Part shown: positions 1 through 18,237 of the stretch, in pieces | Numbering within the stretch: position 1 is the first letter of the stretch | How the letters are laid out: the number at the start of each line of letters is the position of its first letter | IMG/VR virus record: IMGVR_UViG_3300028887_000090 | Span: 37,852 to 101,851 of that record | Origin: a virus | Taxonomy: Duplodnaviria; Caudoviricetes | DNA: 64,000 bases | Reading direction: 5' to 3' (one strand) | Position numbers and translations under genes: made by a program | The notes under the pieces: generated by a model | The model's database searches: none | The model's input: the letters and a program-made list of their open reading frames with translations, nothing else | What the model was told of the DNA's origin: nothing

Positions 1-2
1 TC

Positions 3-128
3 AGTTACCATCTGAAGGATATCTGCAACTGCATTACTTCCTTTGTAGGGGGGGGTATTGGCAAGGATTCAGTAACAGGCATGTATAACACAACTCCGTA
101 TATTTTGATTGAGTATGAACTATTATAA
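3..128 (+). CDS. TRD-like mini-ORF 1 (5' truncated by window edge), G8 tract, in frame
   Basis: Frame 3 reads SYHLKDICNCITSFVGGGIGKDSVTGMYNTTPYILIEYELL*; G8 at 48-55; ends in the LIEY motif shared with the other cassettes. Confidence 0.65.
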   Translation, partial: SYHLKDICNCITSFVGGGIGKDSVTGMYNTTPYILIEYELL

Positions 129-305
129 TTCGCGTCTGTGCGAAATGATTAGGGGGGGCAATGGCGACCACAATATCATGGCGAAATGCTTGACACCTAT
201 AACCAGAACGCCCATCGTAAGGTAGCGATAACCGTTTTGGCTGGCATCAGTTCGCGAAACCACTATTTTGTTTGTGAAGAAAGAACCAATAAATTCAGAA
301 AGTAT
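115..305 (+). pseudogene. TRD-like mini-ORF 2, frameshifted at G7 (OFF); with G8 it fuses in frame to the methyltransferase core
   Basis: ATG at 115 inside GAGTATGA; G7 at 152-158; adding one G gives MNYYNSRLCEMIRGGQWRPQYHGEMLDTYNQ...ITVLAGISSRNHYFVCEE, continuous with ORF 186..1847. Confidence 0.6.
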
Positions 306-1847
306 ATGATCGCAAAGATTTATCCCGACGGACACCCTGATCTTCAGGGTAAAAAGGATCCGAAGCATCCCGTGCGATACTTCGACATCCGAAAACTTAC
401 CCCCCCCGAATGCTATACACTCATGGGGGTACCGCAGCAGCGCATAGCGCAGCTGATGGCAACCGAAAAACGCCCATATACGGCATTTATCGGTGTAGAG
501 GAGGAACTAAGGCTCTTTGGTCTGGAAGAGTCAGCCTCGATGAAAGATGTGCTGGATGCCTACAAGGAGGCGATGCAGAGTTGTGATGAGTTTGACCAGG
601 AAACACAGAAGAAAATCGATGAAGGTTTTCTCAGTCCTGACAGCAGACCCACAACCGATGAAGATGGTGAGGAAATCATCTATCCCTACGACGATGAAGA
701 GAGCTACCAACGTTACCTGGAGCAGTTGAAGGAGGATTTGGAAGGTAACAAACTGGTACGTCAGAATTACGATGAAAGATACGCAAAGATCCGTGCCGCA
801 CCTACTGAGGAACGTTTTGGCGATGTGCAGATAATCTCAAATAGTTCGCACTATAAACTCGCAGGAAACTCGATTGTCTGCGATGTGCTGATGTATATCT
901 ATGAAGAATTTCTCTATCCCACCGGTCGCCGTATTCCTACCGAGCAGCAGGATTTATTCGCGCTGCCGCAATTCCGTTTAGAGCGCGACTGGAAGAAGAA
1001 ACCATTGAAACTTGTTACGCTATGCTCTGGCTATGACTCGCAGGCCATTGCCTTCGACATGCTGAAAGAGCGTTATCCTGATTTTGATTACGAGCTGACG
1101 GCATGGGCTGAGTTTGACCCTGAGAGCAAGCGCCCATTGGAAGAGCAACCCGCAGTGGTGGCCCATAATCTGCTATTCCCTCAGTGGGCCGACCGTAATC
1201 GTGGTGATATGACCAAGTGTGATTGGAGTGACCTGAAGGATGCAGAGGTGGATTTTCTTACTTACTCTACGCCGTGTCAGTCGATCTCACAGGCAGGTAA
1301 GCGTGAGGGCATTAAGAAGGGATCTGAAACCCGTTCGGCTGTGCTCTGGTACACCGAGGAAGCCGTGAAGGTGATGAAACCGAAGATCCTGATGCAGGAG
1401 AATGTGCGTGCGCTGATAAACAGCGTGAACATGCCCGACTTCAAGGAGTGGTGTCAGCTGCTGGAGAAATATGGTTACGTGAACTTCCTTGCGCCCTCAT
1501 TCCCGACATTGTGGGGAGAGACCAAACGCGACAAAAAAACCATTCCTGGCATTCTCAATTCGAAGCACTATGGCGTGCCTCAGAACCGCGAGCGCGTCTA
1601 TATGATTTCTATCCGTCAGGATGTGTTGGGTGATACGCAGTATGAGTTCCCGCGTCCTTTCCCCCTGGATAAGTGTATTGCCGACATTCTGGAGTCAGAT
1701 GTCGATGAGCGTTTCTTCCTGAAGCCCGACTCAGTGATTAAGTTCCTGACTGTGAATGAGAGTGACCAGAAGGCTCAGATCTTCTATGTAGTGACTGACC
1801 ATAAGTTGACGGATGAAGAAATCGCCCAGGCTCGTAGTCGTAAGTAG
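186..1847 (+). CDS. Circularly permuted DNA (cytosine-5) methyltransferase catalytic core (start may be ATG 306)
   Basis: Motif order is IX (IRKLTPPECYTLMG), X (YKLAGNSIVCDVL), I (LCSGYDSQ), IV (YSTPCQSISQAG), VI (QENV), VIII (GVPQNRERVY); no TRD sits between VIII and IX. Confidence 0.9.
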   Translation: MLDTYNQNAHRKVAITVLAGISSRNHYFVCEERTNKFRKYMIAKIYPDGHPDLQGKKDPKHPVRYFDIRKLTPPECYTLMGVPQQRIAQLMATEKRPYTAFIGVEEELRLFGLEESASMKDVLDAYKEAMQSCDEFDQETQKKIDEGFLSPDSRPTTDEDGEEIIYPYDDEESYQRYLEQLKEDLEGNKLVRQNYDERYAKIRAAPTEERFGDVQIISNSSHYKLAGNSIVCDVLMYIYEEFLYPTGRRIPTEQQDLFALPQFRLERDWKKKPLKLVTLCSGYDSQAIAFDMLKERYPDFDYELTAWAEFDPESKRPLEEQPAVVAHNLLFPQWADRNRGDMTKCDWSDLKDAEVDFLTYSTPCQSISQAGKREGIKKGSETRSAVLWYTEEAVKVMKPKILMQENVRALINSVNMPDFKEWCQLLEKYGYVNFLAPSFPTLWGETKRDKKTIPGILNSKHYGVPQNRERVYMISIRQDVLGDTQYEFPRPFPLDKCIADILESDVDERFFLKPDSVIKFLTVNESDQKAQIFYVVTDHKLTDEEIAQARSRK

Positions 1848-2029
1848 TGCCGTGTTGCGGGGTGTTCGTACTGAGCATGCCCGTGCCGTGCGCCGCATTT
1901 ACGGAGATAGGGGGGGGGCATTGCCACTTCTCTGACCGTAATTTTCTTCCGGCTACTGATGGGTGTAGTAATACGATAACTGGAATATTGAAGGATAATT
2001 TGTTATTGATTGAGTATGATGATCATTAA
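1813..2029 (+). pseudogene. TRD-like mini-ORF 3, frameshifted at G9 (OFF)
   Basis: ATG 1813 overlaps the MTase end; G9 at 1910-1918 leads to an early TGA; with G8 it reads ...RTEHARAVRRIYGDRGGHCHFSDRNFLPATDGCSNTITGILKDNLLLIEYDDH*. Confidence 0.65.
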
Positions 2030-2198
2030 AGAGACTGAGCCAACTGCCGATATGAAGCCTGTTCGAATATCGGCAAGCCGTGGTAGGGGGGGGCAAAACG
2101 CTACCCACCAAGTCATCGAATTAGGGTCATGGCAAGCAACGAACACAATTACCTCAGTACAGAAGGATAATATTGTATGGATAGAGCGAGATTTATAA
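2016..2198 (+). CDS. TRD-like mini-ORF 4, G8, in frame
   Basis: MMIIKE...ISASRGRGGQ...ATNTITSVQKDNIVWIERDL*; G8 at 2086-2093; NTITSVQKDN is typical of variable regions in Bacteroidota/phage C5 MTases. Confidence 0.7.
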   Translation: MMIIKETEPTADMKPVRISASRGRGGQNATHQVIELGSWQATNTITSVQKDNIVWIERDL

Positions 2199-2326
2199 GG
2201 AATGTGGGGGGGGTATATTCGCAATGTACTCCCGACTTCAACCGAGGTTGGCTTTGGGGCCTCTCTCGATGTATCAAAGCCTCGATGAATGATGCCGCAA
2301 TATTGATAGAGTATGACTATGAATAG
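2177..2326 (+). CDS. TRD-like mini-ORF 5 (49 aa, below the ORF-track cutoff), G8, in frame
   Basis: MDRARFIRNVGGVYSQCTPDFNRGWLWGLSRCIKASMNDAAILIEYDYE*; G8 at 2206-2213. Confidence 0.65.
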   Translation: MDRARFIRNVGGVYSQCTPDFNRGWLWGLSRCIKASMNDAAILIEYDYE

Positions 2327-2476
2327 GAAATATAAGATAGGTGTTCATATCGTAGGCCATCGTTTAGAGTGGCACGGCGAGGGGGGGCAGACTCGACTAT
2401 GTGGAAAGATATCTGTCCTTGCATTCGCATGAATGATTATAAATGTCCGATGAATATATTGATTGAGTATGAGTAA
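2313..2476 (+). pseudogene. TRD-like mini-ORF 6, frameshifted at G7 (OFF)
   Basis: ATG 2313 inside GAGTATGA; G7 at 2381-2387; with G8 it reads ...WHGEGGADSTMWKDICPCIRMNDYKCPMNILIEYE*. Confidence 0.65.
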
Positions 2477-2723
2477 GGTACGCCATTTCAAACCTCGGTG
2501 TCCCTTCCTTCAGATTGCTACGAGGGGGGGGCAAATCGTGTTACAAGTTCGTCAGGCAACCGAGCAAGGCTATATCGAATGCGTCAGTGGTGGCGTGTTC
2601 GATATGGCTTACCCTACGTCTCAGCTTCGTCGCGCCCGTGTCAAAGACGATGGCCGTGTGGCATCGGCATTGATGGCAGGAGAAACCTCACAATGTGTAT
2701 TTCTGGAGTATGACCTCGATTAA
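2469..2723 (+). CDS. TRD-like mini-ORF 7, G8, in frame
   Basis: MSKVRHF...TRGGQIVLQVRQATEQGYIECVSGGVFDMAYPTSQLRRARV...FLEYDLD*; G8 at 2524-2531; the RQAT..GY...YP.S..RR.RV pattern is typical of phage C5-MTase TRDs. Confidence 0.75.
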   Translation: MSKVRHFKPRCPFLQIATRGGQIVLQVRQATEQGYIECVSGGVFDMAYPTSQLRRARVKDDGRVASALMAGETSQCVFLEYDLD

Positions 2724-2910
2724 ACTATCCAAGACTACCTCCGCACCTCCAAGGGCTTATGGGGGGGGGTATTTGTTGCCTGTCAACACCGCAGCAGGAG
2801 GAATCTGTTGCACACTCAATACCAGATACGACGGCATGCAGTTGCCGGAGGACATCTTATCACTCGCACACTATCCTAAGACGGTTGTGCTCATCGAATA
2901 CAATCTATAA
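2710..2910 (+). CDS. TRD-like mini-ORF 8, G9, in frame
   Basis: MTSIKLSK...AYGGGYLLPVNTAAGGICCTLNTRY...HYPKTVVLIEYNL*; G9 at 2761-2769. Confidence 0.7.
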   Translation: MTSIKLSKTTSAPPRAYGGGYLLPVNTAAGGICCTLNTRYDGMQLPEDILSLAHYPKTVVLIEYNL

Positions 2911-4322: not shown

Positions 4323-7300
4323 ATGGCACTTTTCAATTCAAAAAAATCGGAAGTCGTGATCACGGTTAATTCTCAGCAGCCAAAAGCCGCTGTGAGGGCC
4401 ATGAAGGTGGAGCTTGACAAACTTACACGGTCTTATGAACAGTTGAATAACGCTGGTAAGGCCGGTACCCAGCGTGCAAAGAACATGCTCAAAGACATTA
4501 AAGACCTGAAGGCCGCCATTAAGAACTCCGAGGCTGATATGCAGAAGGTCGATAAGGTGGTTAAGAATTTAGGTAACGCCACCTTGCGTCAGTTGCGCCA
4601 GGCATTGAAGCAGGTCAATAAGGAGATAGAAAACACCTCCGCTAACAATCCGAAATTGGTTCAACTAAAGGAGCAGTATCGGGCCATTGACCAGCAGATA
4701 CGCATGATGACAAAGGACATCAATTCTGCTAATAGTGCCATCCGTGGATCTGGTGGTGCTTTCGCCACTACGTTAAAGAACTTGACAGCTTACTTTGGCC
4801 TGTTTCAACTGTTTTCACAGATACAATCGAAGCTGACTTCTATCATCAAACTTAATCTGCAATTCTCCGACCAGTTGGCCGACATCCGTAAGGTATCTGG
4901 ATTGGCCATGAGTGACATTAACCACATGTCGGAGAATTTGGCAAAGATAGATACTCGTACCACCATTCAGGAACTCAATCAGATTGCTTATGCAGGCGCA
5001 AAGCTCGGCATCGGAAAGTGGGGAACTGAAGCCCTGGAGCAGTTCGTTCGTGCTTCTAACCAAGTGAACGTTGCCCTGAAAGAAGATCTTGGTGCCGATG
5101 CTTTGACCGCTCTCTCGAAGATTACTGAGGTAATGGGATTGATACCGAAGATGGGCGTAGAGAAATCGATGTTGGCCACCGGTTCTGCTATGTTCCAGTT
5201 GGCTGCTACCTCTACCGCTACCGCTGGCAATATCGTTGAGTTTTCGAAACGACTCACCGGTATGGCCCGCACAGCAGGTATCACAACGGATCAGTTGCTG
5301 GCCCTCGGTTCTGCTGCCGATAGTATGTACCTGATGCCTGAAGTGGCTTCTACGGCATTCAATAAGTTCATCACCGCTTTGCAGAAGAATCACAACCTGA
5401 TTGAGAAGCAACTCCAGATTGACCCTGGCACAATCAGTAACCTGTATTCGACGGGTCGTATTGTCGATGCCATGGTACTGGTGTTCGAGCGCATGAATAA
5501 GATGGGTAACATGAACGTGATGCAGGATTTGTTCAAGGATCTTGGTTCGGATGGTGCCCGTCTGGTAAACGTGATGGTTACGATGTCGAAGAATGTCGAT
5601 ATGCTGAAAGATCACCTCTATACTTCAAGTGAGGCATTCGAGGAAGCAACCGCCGTAACCACTGAGTATAATATCCAGCAGGAAACCGCCAACGCCCTCA
5701 TGGAGCGTGCATCGAATATCTGGGAGAAAGCCTTTGTCAACCCTACGGGTGTGGACTATGTGAAGTCGATGGCCCAGCAATGGTATGACCTCTCTAAGGC
5801 CCTGACTGAATCCAATGTTTACATGGGTCAGATTAAACTTACGCTCGGATTGCTTTGGGCGCTGGTTAAACTTGGTCTGTACCTGTTGCCTGCCCTGATT
5901 CAGTTTATGATGTTCAAGGGCTCCTATACCGTCGTTGTCGGTATGTGGAAGGGTATGGTGGTAGTCTATCAGCAGCTGATGGCGAAGATTACGGGTGCCA
6001 CTGTTGCCCAGCAGGGATTGAACACAGCCATGAAAGCCAATATCTTTGGCGTTATCATTTCGCTGTTGTCGATGGCTGCCGTCTATATGTTCAACTATGG
6101 CGAAAAAACGGAGGAAGCAGCCAACTCGCAGCGTAAGTTGAACAGTTACCTGGAGGATGCTGCCAAAGCCTACGATGAAGAGCGTCGTAAGTTGGAATCG
6201 TATCGCAATGTGCTGGATGATGCAAACCTGGCTCAGGAACAGCGCGAGCGTATCATTAAGAAATTCAATCACGAATACCAGCCATACCTTACTAAACTTG
6301 GTCTTGAAGTAAAGAGCGTGGGCGACTTGAAGGGAGCCTATGAGGATCTGAATGCCGAGATTAAGAAAAAGATGTACTACCAGATGCGTGAGCGTGCCTA
6401 CAGTGATAAGTTAGGCGAAGCGCAGGGTGGGGTAGAGAATGCCGTGATGGACTACAGCCGCTATGTCAATGGTAAGGCTGACTTCAAGGCATTTGATACC
6501 AAGTGGCTCCAGTCGAAAGTGGATGCCGGACTGACTGTTGATGAAATCTATAAGTCTGTCATCGAGCAGACCTATGGTAAGGGTGGTGTTTGGTCTGGTT
6601 ATAATGGCGATTACATTATTAATAATAAGTCGAAGCGTGACTCCGGCCTTCGCAGTCGTATTGCGAACTTCGTCAACGCCAATAAGAACTATACGACCAC
6701 CAAGACTGAGATTGACGATGCTTTCAATCCTATCATTGGTGACTACGACCCATTCAAGAATGACGACCTGGGCGAGTTGGAGCGTGATGCTGTTGATAAG
6801 CGTGAGCGTGCCAAGCAGAAGGCCGAGGAAGCGGCCCGTCGTAAGGCACTCCGTGCGGAAATGAAAGCCGAGCAGGAGCAGGCAAAGGCTGTGATGGATA
6901 ACGTCAAAAACTATTATGAGCGTCAGATTGCCGCCATTACCGATATGGCCACCAAGACGAACATGGATCCTGAGCTTCAGGCAAAGATGGTGGATGCGAT
7001 GAAGAATCGCATGAATGACGCTTTGGCGAACGTCCGTAAGGCTATTGCCGGTGTTGAGAATGGTTGGAGTGACTTCCGCGAGACCATGATTAACGACCTC
7101 TACGAGCCGTTGAAGTCTGATGGTACCAACGAGTCAACGCAGTTGCTCGACAATATCATTCAGAACGATGTCGATAAACTCCGTGAAATGATTAAGGATC
7201 TCTCGAAGGCCCTTGGTCAGAGTCAGGGCGTATTGCTCGACCAGATTTGGCGCAAGGCTACTGAAAACCAGTTGAAGAATGCCGTGCAGGAGAATAAGGC

Positions 7301-9548
7301 TTCCCAGGAGCGCCAGAAGATTATCATGGAGAGCAATTACACGGGTAAGGTGGATAAAGACTACGAGGGCCAGATGGAGAAACTGCAAATCGCAGAGTTT
7401 ACTCCTGACCAGACCGCTTACCTGATGGGATTGCAGCAGAAGGGTGGTAAGGATGCTGTGCAGGCATTCCTCGATGAGCGCAGCAGCTTATGGCGCGAGG
7501 CATTCGTGAAGGCCCGCGAGAATATGATAGCACTTATCTCCAATGACCCGTCAACGGAAAAGGGACGCAAGGCTATTATGACCTTGCTCTATGGTGCCGA
7601 CTACGAGAACCGCTTGCAGAACTCTCCGCTGAAGTCGTTGCTGACGATGGAGGCTGATAAGTGGCAGGTGTTCTACGAAAAGCTGATTGCCTATGGCGAT
7701 GATTATACCGAGGCCCTGAAGAAGGTAGCCGACCGTGAAAAGAAACTGTTGGATTTCCGTCTGAAGGTTTACGAGGCATACCAGAAAGCCACCAGTGAGG
7801 CAACTCGTGCCGACTATAAGGATAAGAGCATCTATCAGTTTACAGATGAAGGTTATGCCCAGCGTGCGCAGCATGAGTTGGCAAAGAGTCAGCGCAAACG
7901 TAAGTTGGGTAATGTGAATGATGGAAACTCTCGTGCGCAGACTATGCGTGAGGGTCGTGAGCAAGAGGAACTTGTTACCGATCCAGGCAAAGTGGAGCGT
8001 ACCGGTATGATGGGTGGCTCTACCTTCTTTAACTCATTCAAGGCTGACCCAGCCCTGGCACAGTTGAAGGCTGAAATGGAACTCCGCAAGCAGGCTATGG
8101 AATTGGCTATTGCCGAAGGCCAGTTAGAGGAGAATATTGCAGAGCGTAAGACAGAACTTTGGCAGGCTCAGGCAAAGTATTATGCCGAGCTTGGTACCAG
8201 ACTGAAGGCGCAGATGGAGGAAATGTATGGTCTCGCCGCTCCTGTCGAAACCTTTGGTACTAACATCGGTAAGGCTTTCGCCACGATGACCGAGGACGCA
8301 GAGGCAGGCCGTAAGGCTATCCGTGCTGCCATCGGTGACATGATTAACGGCTTCATGGAGCAGACCGTGAAGATGACTGAGGAATGGATTAAGCGTCGTC
8401 TGATGCAGACGATGTACGACAATCTGATGTCGAAGCAAATCGTTGCTTCTGCTGAAGAGCAAGTTGCTCTTGAAGAAAAGAAGCAGGATGATATCACTGA
8501 TGCCCAGAAGGAAGGTGGCGAGGCGAAGCAGTCCATCTTTAAGAAGATAGGTAATGGCTTTATGTCCCTCTTCAAGAAACAGAAGAAGGATGAAGTCAAA
8601 ATGGAGGAGGATAAGCAGGATGAAATCATCGAGACACAAGAGACCGGAGGCGAGGCCCAGGAGTTCTTGAATCAAGAGGTGAAGAGTAATATCTCGAAGG
8701 CTACAGCTGAGATTGGCAATGAGACCCTTCAGACTGAGCAGGCTCAGGTACAACAGGAGGTGCAGACCGAATCCGCAAAGACGCAGGCTAACACCTCAAT
8801 GGGTATTGCCAGTGGTGCCTCTAAGATCATTGGTACGTTAGGCTGGTGGGGTATTCCTCTGATTGCCGTCATCACTGCCTTGCTGAATGGCTTGCTCTCG
8901 TTTGCCATGTCGAAGGTGTCATCACTCTTTGGCGGTGGCAGCGAATCCGATGATGGTGGCGGTCAGACGGCCAAACTTGTGACGGGTATGTTGACTTACG
9001 ACTCTGGTAACGTGCAGGCTTATGCCGGTGTTCTCGATGGTAAGAGTTATCCTGTCGTTGGTAGCGATGGTAACGTCTATGCCGCTACTGACGGTGGCGA
9101 ACTGAGTACTGGCTTGGTGAAGGATCCTATCACTACCTTCGTCAATGGTCAACCGGCTTTGGTGGCTGAAAAAGGCCCAGAAATGGTGATTGGTCGTGAA
9201 ACGACGGCTGCCATGATGATGGCTCGCCCAGACTTGATGGCAGAGATAGTGAAGTTCGATAAGAATCGTTCCGGCATGAATTACCGCGTCTTTGACGAAG
9301 GTAACGTAGGTGAGTTTGGGGCATTCGCTAACCCCGACGGCTCTCCCGCCGCTCCCTCGCTCTCCCAGGAGGATGTGCAGCAGTTGCGCGGAGCCATCAC
9401 TGAGTTTACGGCTATGATGTTGCTGTTGCAGAAGAATGGCTTGCATGTGAATAAGTACGGACGTGGCGGTATTGCCGAGGAAGCCGAGGATGGTGCTCAG
9501 TTTATGGGCCGCTATTCCGGCTCCCGTCTGTGGAATAAGAAAAAGTAA
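4323..9548 (+). CDS. Phage tail tape measure protein
   Basis: 1741 aa, coiled-coil rich, TP901-like core (FSDQLADIRKVSG...), hydrophobic segments, C-terminal VAEKGPEMVI motif. Confidence 0.88.
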   Translation: MALFNSKKSEVVITVNSQQPKAAVRAMKVELDKLTRSYEQLNNAGKAGTQRAKNMLKDIKDLKAAIKNSEADMQKVDKVVKNLGNATLRQLRQALKQVNKEIENTSANNPKLVQLKEQYRAIDQQIRMMTKDINSANSAIRGSGGAFATTLKNLTAYFGLFQLFSQIQSKLTSIIKLNLQFSDQLADIRKVSGLAMSDINHMSENLAKIDTRTTIQELNQIAYAGAKLGIGKWGTEALEQFVRASNQVNVALKEDLGADALTALSKITEVMGLIPKMGVEKSMLATGSAMFQLAATSTATAGNIVEFSKRLTGMARTAGITTDQLLALGSAADSMYLMPEVASTAFNKFITALQKNHNLIEKQLQIDPGTISNLYSTGRIVDAMVLVFERMNKMGNMNVMQDLFKDLGSDGARLVNVMVTMSKNVDMLKDHLYTSSEAFEEATAVTTEYNIQQETANALMERASNIWEKAFVNPTGVDYVKSMAQQWYDLSKALTESNVYMGQIKLTLGLLWALVKLGLYLLPALIQFMMFKGSYTVVVGMWKGMVVVYQQLMAKITGATVAQQGLNTAMKANIFGVIISLLSMAAVYMFNYGEKTEEAANSQRKLNSYLEDAAKAYDEERRKLESYRNVLDDANLAQEQRERIIKKFNHEYQPYLTKLGLEVKSVGDLKGAYEDLNAEIKKKMYYQMRERAYSDKLGEAQGGVENAVMDYSRYVNGKADFKAFDTKWLQSKVDAGLTVDEIYKSVIEQTYGKGGVWSGYNGDYIINNKSKRDSGLRSRIANFVNANKNYTTTKTEIDDAFNPIIGDYDPFKNDDLGELERDAVDKRERAKQKAEEAARRKALRAEMKAEQEQAKAVMDNVKNYYERQIAAITDMATKTNMDPELQAKMVDAMKNRMNDALANVRKAIAGVENGWSDFRETMINDLYEPLKSDGTNESTQLLDNIIQNDVDKLREMIKDLSKALGQSQGVLLDQIWRKATENQLKNAVQENKASQERQKIIMESNYTGKVDKDYEGQMEKLQIAEFTPDQTAYLMGLQQKGGKDAVQAFLDERSSLWREAFVKARENMIALISNDPSTEKGRKAIMTLLYGADYENRLQNSPLKSLLTMEADKWQVFYEKLIAYGDDYTEALKKVADREKKLLDFRLKVYEAYQKATSEATRADYKDKSIYQFTDEGYAQRAQHELAKSQRKRKLGNVNDGNSRAQTMREGREQEELVTDPGKVERTGMMGGSTFFNSFKADPALAQLKAEMELRKQAMELAIAEGQLEENIAERKTELWQAQAKYYAELGTRLKAQMEEMYGLAAPVETFGTNIGKAFATMTEDAEAGRKAIRAAIGDMINGFMEQTVKMTEEWIKRRLMQTMYDNLMSKQIVASAEEQVALEEKKQDDITDAQKEGGEAKQSIFKKIGNGFMSLFKKQKKDEVKMEEDKQDEIIETQETGGEAQEFLNQEVKSNISKATAEIGNETLQTEQAQVQQEVQTESAKTQANTSMGIASGASKIIGTLGWWGIPLIAVITALLNGLLSFAMSKVSSLFGGGSESDDGGGQTAKLVTGMLTYDSGNVQAYAGVLDGKSYPVVGSDGNVYAATDGGELSTGLVKDPITTFVNGQPALVAEKGPEMVIGRETTAAMMMARPDLMAEIVKFDKNRSGMNYRVFDEGNVGEFGAFANPDGSPAAPSLSQEDVQQLRGAITEFTAMMLLLQKNGLHVNKYGRGGIAEEAEDGAQFMGRYSGSRLWNKKK

Positions 9549-15759: not shown

Positions 15760-16373
15760 TGGATAAGTTGCCGATCATCCGCTTTACGCAGGGTCTTACT
15801 ACGCTGGTTACAGAGGGTAAGAAGGATATGACCCGCCGGTTGACCACAGACCGCCGACAGTATGAGGTGGGCGAACGGGTGGCTATCGCAGAAGGTTATG
15901 GCTTTATCTGGCGCAGTCTGCCCACTCCTGGCGATAAGATCAGGTTTATCCATCGCTTGCAGCGTGAGTTGGGTGTGGAGCATCCTATGCAGTTGCCCGC
16001 GTGGGAAAACAAACTCTTTGTCCGTCCGGAGCTGATGCAGTACCAAATAGAGATTACCGAGAAACGTCGTGAGCACCTTCAGGATATCTCCGAGGCCGAC
16101 ATGTTGCGTGAGGGTATTTTCCATGGTCTTATGAGCGCGACGGACATCAAGACGAAGGAAACGGGTGACTTTACCTGGCTCGACATCAAGCGTAAGAAAC
16201 TTCCTAACGGAAAGTATCATGTCAGCATTCGGCATAACATCCATAGCAATTTGCGTGAGTGCTTTATCGACATGATCGACCATGTATGTGGCAAAGGCAC
16301 CTGGGACTCCAATCCCGAAGTCTATGCCTACGCCTTCAAACTGATCGACCTTTATCCCAAATTTTTAGAATAG
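15756..16373 (+). CDS. ASCH/PUA-like phage protein
   Basis: GKKDMTRR, EHLQDISEADMLREGI, WDSNPEVYAYAF motifs. Confidence 0.6.
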   Translation: MMDKLPIIRFTQGLTTLVTEGKKDMTRRLTTDRRQYEVGERVAIAEGYGFIWRSLPTPGDKIRFIHRLQRELGVEHPMQLPAWENKLFVRPELMQYQIEITEKRREHLQDISEADMLREGIFHGLMSATDIKTKETGDFTWLDIKRKKLPNGKYHVSIRHNIHSNLRECFIDMIDHVCGKGTWDSNPEVYAYAFKLIDLYPKFLE

Positions 16374-17631: not shown

Positions 17632-17997
17632 ATGACAAAGAATGAAGTAAAAAAGCATGTTCCTGATGTGTGCGTACAGAAAATTACGCTCAGGAATTGT
17701 TCGGCTATAGCTACTAAAGCGAAGGTCGTAGCAGAAAGTATGGGCACCGGTTTGATTTGTTATGATTGGAATGGTGAGCGTGACCTACTCAGTATCTTTA
17801 CCTCTTATGATTTTAAGGATTTCTTGGATTTCCTGAAGCCTGGCGTGAAAGTCACTAATAAGTATGGTGGTGAGTTTACTATTGAGAGTGAGCCGTATTT
17901 GGAAAACTGTAGAATGTGCGTTCGTGCCAATGGCGATGTCTGGTTTTGTGATGTGTTGTATAATCCGACGTTGAACTATAAAGGAATGTTACAATGA
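17632..17997 (+). CDS. Hypothetical protein
   Basis: 121-aa ORF in the operon. Confidence 0.6.
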   Translation: MTKNEVKKHVPDVCVQKITLRNCSAIATKAKVVAESMGTGLICYDWNGERDLLSIFTSYDFKDFLDFLKPGVKVTNKYGGEFTIESEPYLENCRMCVRANGDVWFCDVLYNPTLNYKGMLQ

Positions 17998-18237
17998 ATA
18001 GGTCTAATGTTGGAGTGAAACAGGGGGGGGGTAAAATCGCCCTTCAGAGGAAACGGTCTGAGTCGTACCGCCATGTTGTTTAAGATAGCGACGCTGGCAG
18101 GTCATAAACTGACTATTCCAGAAATGAATAAGTTTAAAGAGGTGAATCCTCGTAGTCTTGAACAAGTATATAATGAAGTGGTTCGCGTAGGCGATGCCGG
18201 TAATGCCCGATTCGCTTTGCAACTGATATTAAAATAA
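17994..18237 (+). pseudogene. Hypothetical 80-aa gene frameshifted at a G9 tract (G8 restores the frame)
   Basis: ATGA overlap with the upstream stop; G9 at 18023-18031; removing one G gives an open frame to TAA 18235-18237, 4 nt before the next ATG. Confidence 0.6.

Follow-up and report, generated by a model that had tools for sequence, protein, structure and literature searches.

The multispecific C5 cytosine methyltransferases (C5-MTases) of Bacillus phages, M.SPRI, M.Phi3TI, M.Rho11sI and M.H2I, which were studied in the Trautner laboratory, use one core with several short, modular target recognition domains (TRDs), each taken to confer one specificity. The TRDs of these constitutively expressed enzymes lie side by side in the same polypeptide, between motifs VIII and IX; PMC8936443 and PMC7544214 list references to the enzymes. 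Here we describe a locus of a rumen or gut phage in which such parts are arranged very differently. It lies at the left edge of a 64,000-nucleotide stretch of viral DNA (Duplodnaviria; Caudoviricetes), hereafter termed the window, that comprises bases 37852-101851 of IMG/VR record IMGVR_UViG_3300028887_000090 (101,851 bp, estimated 96% complete), and the whole record was read for the DNA further to the left. The locus contains a single circularly permuted C5-MTase with six short cassettes upstream (A-F) and six downstream (G-L), the 12 modules being of 12 sequence types (Table 1). We consider it probable that the TRD subunits are translated separately and equip this single permuted core with many specificities, each of which can be switched by mutation on its own. 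Like the Bacillus phage enzymes, the system is phage-encoded, has one core with several TRDs and is presumed to serve anti-restriction, and its modules match tandem modules of relatives with the canonical motif order. Unlike those enzymes, the modules are in separate mini-open reading frames (mini-ORFs), each with a stop and a coupled start and each with a private homopolymer switch, and the core is permuted.

Three other types of C5-MTase share features with this locus. M.phiBssHII is said to be a single polypeptide, and we know of no detached TRD genes or homopolymer switches reported for it. Going by its title, the paper on this enzyme (Sethmann et al. 1999, EMBO J 18:3502) reportedly describes a multispecific C5-MTase with TRDs at separated locations. 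As in the present locus, its TRDs are found at several places relative to the core, and hence the canonical position between VIII and IX is not required for TRD function. Natural circularly permuted C5-MTases include M.BssHII, M.Alw26I, M2.Eco31I, M.Esp3I and M2.BsaI (PMC5944983). The core described here resembles the M.BssHII type in that motifs IX-X precede I-VIII and the new N-terminus is in the variable region, and the order TRD-IX-X-I..VIII is the same when cassette F is fused to it. A single polypeptide with one TRD in cis makes up the whole of an M.BssHII-type enzyme, whereas most cores related to the present one lack a TRD and, in this phage, 11 more modules are encoded apart; cassette F is fused only when its G run is G8, it is G7 here, and about 50 of 80 relatives lack a cis TRD. 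C5-MTases can also be split, as in the alpha and beta chains of M.AquI, and artificial fragments can complement each other (PMC5944983, PMC3404938). Gut-phage relatives of the present system (Dulem virus 40 and the one encoding P0001) similarly pair a I-VIII chain with a multi-TRD-IX-X chain, but while the TRD is attached to IX-X in enzymes of the M.AquI type, here the catalytic chain includes IX-X and only the TRD is separate.

Switching of methyltransferases by simple sequence repeats is well known from the phasevarions of bacteria, which involve Type III mod and Type I hsdM/hsdS genes (PMC5149525, PMC7383803). In these, and by prediction in the phage locus, a homopolymer or short repeat within a coding region changes in length and so turns methylation on or off. 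The bacterial systems modify N6-adenine and have a single switch for each enzyme, or else rely on recombination between hsdS copies, in contrast to a phage C5 enzyme with about 12 independent module switches plus one in the core. Each ingredient of the locus is thus already known, namely modular TRDs, separated TRDs, permuted enzymes, split enzymes and repeat-driven phase variation. The architecture as a whole, which the first-pass annotation of the window could not match to anything described, has no published description in the literature searched, nor was any report found there of detached TRD genes for a C5 enzyme or of per-module switches, many subscription papers being beyond the reach of that search.

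Results

A permuted C5-MTase core between two cassette arrays

The ORF of the core has the motif order that had been claimed for it, with IX (RKLTPPEC), X (AGNSIV), I (LCSGYDSQ), IV (TPCQ), VI (ENV) and VIII (QNRER), and the C5-MTase set is complete, including motif I for binding of S-adenosylmethionine, the catalytic Cys of motif IV (PCQ), VI (ENV), VIII (QxRxR), IX and X. Residues 333-519 gave a strong PF00145 match (E=1.4e-38) to profile positions 44-216, and the N-terminal TRD/IX part gave a second, weak match to positions 207-292. The AlphaFold2 model of the core, which has a predicted local distance difference test score (pLDDT) of 87 and a predicted template modeling score of 0.83, is of low confidence at residues 1-40, the remnant of cassette F. 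Its top Foldseek matches were M.MpeI (4dkj) and M.HhaI (E ~1e-14 to 1e-12), and the two-domain methyltransferase fold is predicted to be present, with a helical acidic insertion between motifs IX and X. Met41 (ATG 306-308, MIAKIYPDG) is the only invariant column of the core alignment, and in closer relatives it is the start of a TRD-less core. No second C5-MTase was found by a Pfam PF00145 scan of the 96%-complete, 101.9-kb genome.

Table 1. Cassettes, core and core homopolymer tract of the locus (window positions unless marked genome).
Feature	Position	Strand	Homopolymer tract and state	Remarks
Cassette A	genome 36873-37039 (left of window)	+	G7, OFF
Cassette B	ends genome 37489 (left of window)	+	G8, in frame
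Cassette C	genome 37479-37630 (left of window)	+	G8, OFF (ON=G9)
Cassette D	genome 37620-37807 (left of window)	+	G7, OFF
Cassette E	1-128 (3' part); full mini-ORF genome 37797-37979	+	G8 48-55, ON	HhaI-like TRD module, ..NCITSFVGGGIGKD..YILIEYELL
Cassette F	115-305	+	G7 152-158, out of frame with core, stop at 225	..ITVLAG..YFVCEE
Permuted C5 cytosine methyltransferase core	186-1847	+		motifs IX-X-I-IV-VI-VIII; PF00145; alignment of relatives; structure model
C8 tract	400-407	+	C8, in frame here	inside motif IX (LTPPEC) of core
Cassette G	1813-2029	+	G9 1910-1918, OFF (ON=G8)	tail LLLIEYDDH
Cassette H	2016-2198	+	G8 2086-2093, ON	TRD module, ..TNTITSVQKDNIVWIERDL
Cassette I	2177-2326	+	G8 2206-2213, ON	tail AILIEYDYE
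Cassette J	2313-2476	+	G7 2381-2387, OFF (ON=G8)	tail NILIEYE
Cassette K	2469-2723	+	G8 2524-2531, ON	TRD module, ..RQATEQGYIEC..RRARV..CVFLEYDLD
Cassette L (last of array)	2710-2910	+	G9 2761-2769, ON (ON=G9)	TL-type TRD, ..CCTLNTRYD..VVLIEYNL

Every cassette has one G run on its sense strand, and all except F and H have a tail of the form xLIEY(D/E) plus 0-3 residues and a stop. The first-pass annotation had seen a hydrophobic-I/L-E-Y tail in each mini-gene, which holds for most of them, but cassette H finishes in WIERDL. It had also counted two short ORFs before the core and six after it. The six after it stand, but there are six before it once the DNA left of the window is included, and the array extends past the window edge, as had been noted, by 990 bp with four cassettes and G runs at genome positions 36981, 37412, 37596 and 37663. 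Contrary to the proposal that the TRD is outside the core protein, the core of this phage is not TRD-less, cassette F (G7 in this assembly) being joined to it in frame when its run is G8. The ATG of cassette F lies within the LIEY tail of cassette E, and at G8 F would become the N-terminal TRD of the core, giving the topology of M.BssHII. On the other side of the core, the ATG of cassette G is inside the codons of the C-terminal DEEI in a different frame.

Homology of the cassettes to TRD modules

The peptides of the mini-genes are homologous to the TRD modules of C5-MTases, as had been suspected from the sequence. A word-based search matched cassette K (58% identity over 45 residues) with the module immediately preceding motif IX in P0001, a PF00145 protein with about six fused modules that each end in hydrophobic-I-x-E and are followed by IX and X, and cassette H aligned with a different one of the P0001 modules. 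The core had 8222 relatives in a full HMMER search, and comparison of the cassettes by local BLAST with the best 150 of these 8222 placed nine of 11 cassette types inside the VIII-IX variable region of relatives with the canonical motif order. Long canonical relatives hold these types in tandem, with C, K, G and I in P0144, G and K in P0053, and H and G in P0049. Together, the VIII-IX matches and the tandem modules indicate that the array is a TRD set of the multispecific type that has been cut into separate genes. A Pfam scan of five in-frame cassettes (E<=10) gave no methylase match, a phmmer search with cassette L gave none among PDB sequences, and a word-based search for longer relatives of cassette L found none.

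TRD-less cores in related phages

A profile scan of IMG/VR gave 80 loci from relatives. In about 50 of these the permuted core has no TRD of its own and begins with MITKLNFTDRTIKSYAIRKLTP, so that motif IX is at residue 18 with only 17 residues before it. All of the TRD-less cores are flanked by mini-ORFs, and 3-7 recognizable junctions of LIEY and ATG surround them. Some of the loci have no G run of seven or more; locus L078 has 12 mini-TRD ORFs and not one such run. In total, 297 in-frame mini-ORFs were counted in the loci, and they group into about 17 recurrent families. Position is not fixed, a family found upstream of the core in one phage being downstream in another. Related phages have the same cassette families in differing ON/OFF state, order and number, which is what the first-pass annotation had predicted. 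That a TRD-less core always occurs with free TRD genes, in either position, is the strongest argument for action in trans. This part of the original proposal, which we still infer, has strong comparative support in that the cores of most relatives have no TRD of their own.

Other arrangements also occur. A module of the E type is fused at the N-terminal slot in relatives P0017 and L018-L023, while in two distant relatives from gut phages, L088 (Dulem virus 40, PP511379.1) and L007 (the ENA contig encoding P0001), a I-VIII chain is accompanied by a separate chain with six to seven fused TRD modules followed by IX-X. In L007, G7 and G9 runs are found in or before the TRD modules.

Cassette order was also seen to vary in short, low-depth contigs from sequencing runs X1 and X3. 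These contigs join L001:624-684 to position 1312 or 4020, such that the end of cassette A leads, via 35-39 other letters, into the G run of a D-type or K-type cassette, which indicates that co-occurring strains differ in cassette order or content.

Cassette junctions

At about 50 junctions in five phages, the ATG of the next cassette is in the +1 frame and is formed from the Tyr codon TAT and the following G (GAR-TAT-GA), the ATG being 5, 8 or 11 nt upstream of the point where the stop ends. In four of five phages, the cassette that closes the array has TAC or CAC instead, and thus there is no ATG where no cassette follows. This includes cassette L, whose Tyr codon is TAC. The conserved Y(D/E) reflects a constraint at the nucleotide level, because relatives with fused modules lack the Tyr. 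The modules are not contiguous in one polypeptide, each ending in a stop and the next beginning at its own ATG in the +1 frame. Judged from sequence, the junction is consistent with small, separate proteins whose translation is coupled. We also considered and rejected a programmed +1 ribosomal shift that would yield a polyprotein, since there is no shift-prone codon pair, tRNA-Tyr and tRNA-Glu cannot re-pair in the +1 frame, and the conserved item is specifically an ATG.

Selection on the cassettes and their homopolymer tracts

The eight G runs of the window are exactly where the first-pass annotation had placed them (Table 1), and they represent eight of the nine runs of six or more G residues in the window. 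The ninth, a G9 run at 18023-18031, is at the start of a small ORF (72 residues in one frame). In the whole 101.9-kb genome, 12 of the 14 G runs of seven or more are inside 3.8 kb (genome 36981-40620), while a first-order Markov model predicts about seven G or C runs of this length in the genome on both strands. Five of the eight cassettes of the window are in frame, and the three that are broken (G7, G9 and G7) are each closed by G8, as had been stated. For all 12 cassettes, the assembled state is in frame in B, E, H, I, K and L and one base off in A, C, D, F, G and J. Gene conversion driven by G-quadruplexes, as in pilin variation, was also considered as a role for the runs, but their spacing of 70-430 nt exceeds what a standard quadruplex can span.

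Orthologous cassettes have diverged almost to saturation at synonymous sites (pS, the proportion of synonymous differences, is 0.56-0.95), yet the overall ratio of nonsynonymous to synonymous proportions (pN/pS) is 0.21, OFF families included, and purifying selection is evident on both sides of the G runs. GGG is the rarest Gly codon, accounting for 4.7% of the Gly codons in the long genes of this phage, and GGGGGG encodes only one of 99 Gly-Gly pairs. That the runs are nevertheless pure G across divergent phages shows that the homopolymers themselves are selected.

The lengths of the tracts differ between near-identical phages from independent samples, as the first-pass annotation had anticipated. 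Over 4.3 kb, the contigs of run X2, which represents another sample, show a single substitution relative to this phage but 11 one-base gaps, and the gaps listed for the various runs are all at G runs: D changes from G7 to G8 (X2, X3), E from G8 to G7 (X3, X8), K from G8 to G7 (X2, X3) and L from G9 to G8 (X3). Similarly, relatives L003 and L004, which are 96% identical, differ at eight tracts, all of them G or C runs, and have no other frame-changing indel in coding DNA. Of the 158 cassette tracts in 81 loci, 74 are ON and 84 miss ON by one base, and for 97 of the 158 the ON length is G8. Hence the locus has the traits of a contingency locus, in that an in-frame homopolymer is kept by selection and its length differs between near-identical genomes, thereby toggling the frame. 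The phage population can probably switch single methylation specificities on and off.

An additional tract, missed by the first-pass annotation, is the C8 run inside motif IX of the core (Table 1), the only one with C instead of G on the sense strand. It is C9 in one relative and C10 in another, with the core broken, and is absent in a third (LTPREC). The C tract is a candidate master switch of the whole core.

Discussion

Action in trans and alternative explanations

In the mechanism that we infer, the mini-genes would be translated in succession, each from an ATG within the LIEY(D/E) tail of the preceding one, and each mini-protein would dock on the core in trans and supply one DNA specificity. 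Slippage of its sense-strand poly-G tract during replication, with ON mostly at G8, would shift the frame and so toggle that specificity independently of the others, and the poly-C tract in motif IX could switch the entire core. A population would then hold many methylation patterns, which may be a hedge between host restriction enzymes that are blocked by methylation and those that attack methylated DNA. Also counting for separately switched TRD subunits is that at least one further methyltransferase gene of this phage is broken at a sense-strand G tract.

Multimer modeling of the core with a cassette, which the first-pass annotation had recommended, gave cassette E a score of 0.59, compared with 0.01 for the best control, and a verdict of 'weak support'. 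The mark used for such models is reached by 58 of 80 solved complexes and by two of 110 mismatched pairs, but at scores up to 0.60 there are only seven of the 80 solved complexes together with both of the passing mismatches, and in this range wrong passes outnumber right ones unless the guess was likely beforehand. As the model was built on our own alignments, these calibration counts hold only roughly. The runs agree in at least 20% of contacts. The complex and single-cassette models are compatible with folding of a cassette on the core and are not proof of it.

Several points weigh against TRD subunits that act in trans and are freely switched. The pLDDT of cassette E in the complex model is only 31-42, and cassette K modeled alone (AlphaFold2, 14 orthologs) has a pLDDT of 51, too poor for a fold search. 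The core of this phage has its own fused TRD, cassette F, and this calls into question the access of free modules to the core. We know of no C5-MTase that uses as a subunit a TRD alone, without motif IX. The tract lengths are from assembled consensus (Logan) contigs and so represent differences between samples rather than within one clonal population. Finally, in almost all of the five close relatives the tracts of families A, G and J lack one base of the ON length, a pattern that fits RNA-level slippage or a sticky G7 state equally as well as free switching.

The last point leads to an explanation in which the tracts act mainly at the level of RNA or the ribosome, where slippage on G7-G9 would give a fixed, small in-frame share of the mRNA. 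The tracts would then set expression and the TRDs would still serve the core. Consistent with this, A, G and J have pN/pS values of 0.07-0.16 while nearly always one base short of ON, and the G residues are always on the sense strand, even in methyltransferase genes on the opposite strand. We regard this as unlikely to be the main role of the tracts, however, as their lengths differ in the DNA of near-identical phages and about half of all tracts are exactly ON. The two processes are not mutually exclusive and RNA-level slippage may contribute too. It is also conceivable that the cassettes are a reserve library, active only after recombination into the cis slot at the N-terminus of the core, with the junctions and G runs as crossover points. 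Conservation of the junction does extend over about 14 nt, both the order and the content of the cassettes vary among relatives and among strains of one sample, and some relatives have an E-type module in the N-terminal slot. Yet each cassette keeps its own ATG and stop, the ATG is missing only where no cassette follows, and the cores of most relatives use no cis slot. Start codons and frameshift switches of their own would be superfluous in silent copies, and a library of this type therefore appears rather doubtful.

Separately encoded TRD subunits are also to be compared with mini-proteins that do something other than confer specificity on the core, for example shield sites by sequence-specific binding to DNA, or act against host restriction enzymes as decoys or inhibitors. 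Docking on the core is a proposal and the isolated modules are small and not confidently folded alone, which leaves some room for such functions, but they seem improbable given that the cassettes are homologous to modules inside methyltransferases of a working type, that they are always linked to a TRD-less core with its catalytic motifs retained, and that the genome has no other C5-MTase. It is least credible that the locus is the decaying remnant of a multispecific methyltransferase with frameshifts that are assembly or sequencing errors. Homopolymers are error-prone and the data are consensus contigs. In a remnant, however, one would not expect purifying selection on both sides of each run, nor pure G runs kept across saturated synonymous divergence and against codon preference. 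The same design recurs in dozens of independent assemblies from many samples, and contigs at depths of 10-120x disagree only at the tracts.

Implications

It appears reasonably likely that C5-MTases can use freely exchangeable specificity subunits of 45-110 residues, as a C5 counterpart to the logic of HsdS in Type I systems, and that a whole clade of gut and rumen phages uses arrays of them, here with a switch for each. With 12 switches there would be up to 2^12 patterns, which refines the earlier count of 2^8 or more, and the C tract in motif IX should be included as well. Provided that the mini-proteins act in trans, the system would represent the first C5-MTase whose recognition subunits are detachable. 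No phase-variable epigenetic system described would be more finely divided, since a single enzyme would have about a dozen independent switches, and its bearer is a virus and not a bacterium. This would account for the ability of abundant rumen and gut phages to withstand the many, changing restriction systems of their hosts, including methylation-dependent ones. The system also bears on the old question of how a multispecific enzyme makes use of several TRDs with a single catalytic core. The 17 or so, or more, recurrent module families would be a natural parts list for building cytosine methyltransferases of chosen specificity. Annotators should be aware that 'hypothetical' mini-ORFs next to phage methylases can have a function even when they are frameshifted.

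Distribution, neighboring genes and other tracts

Sequencing runs that contain DNA of the array are labeled as bovine, sheep or gut metagenomes. There were no close relatives of the core in contigs of prokaryotes taken at one genome per species, and among GenBank phages no record covered 80% of the core, the best being 37% identical. The core of one relative matched only metagenome bins, labeled Prevotella, Oscillospiraceae, Clostridium and others, and phage contigs in bins are unreliable for assigning a host.

Three more tracts with G on the sense strand are found on the minus strand further to the left. At genome 20766-20772, an N6_N4_Mtase gene (L008:5764-6417; PF01555, E=8e-14) ends at a G7 tract, beyond which its motif I part (DNTMGSGTT) carries on in a different frame. 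A G9 tract at 17818-17826 joins two open frames whose pieces have no Pfam match, and a G8 tract at 16281-16288 is in frame within a 332-residue ORF with a weak radical-SAM match.

Directly before cassette A is an HNH_3 endonuclease gene (genome 36586-36909; L001:235-558), the last codons of which contain the ATG of cassette A, and the same neighbor is present in at least three of the four closest relatives. It is preceded by a gene that, going by sequence only, appears to encode a sliding clamp-like protein. The junction ATG after cassette A opens a Cys-rich, hydrophobic ORF of 107 residues (genome 37029-37349) without a TRD-like tail, and cassette B, which is behind it in a different frame, would need an internal ATG. 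On the other side of the array, a 1741-residue ORF resembling a tape measure protein (window 4323-9548) begins 1.4 kb past its end, and the methylase block therefore adjoins the tail genes.

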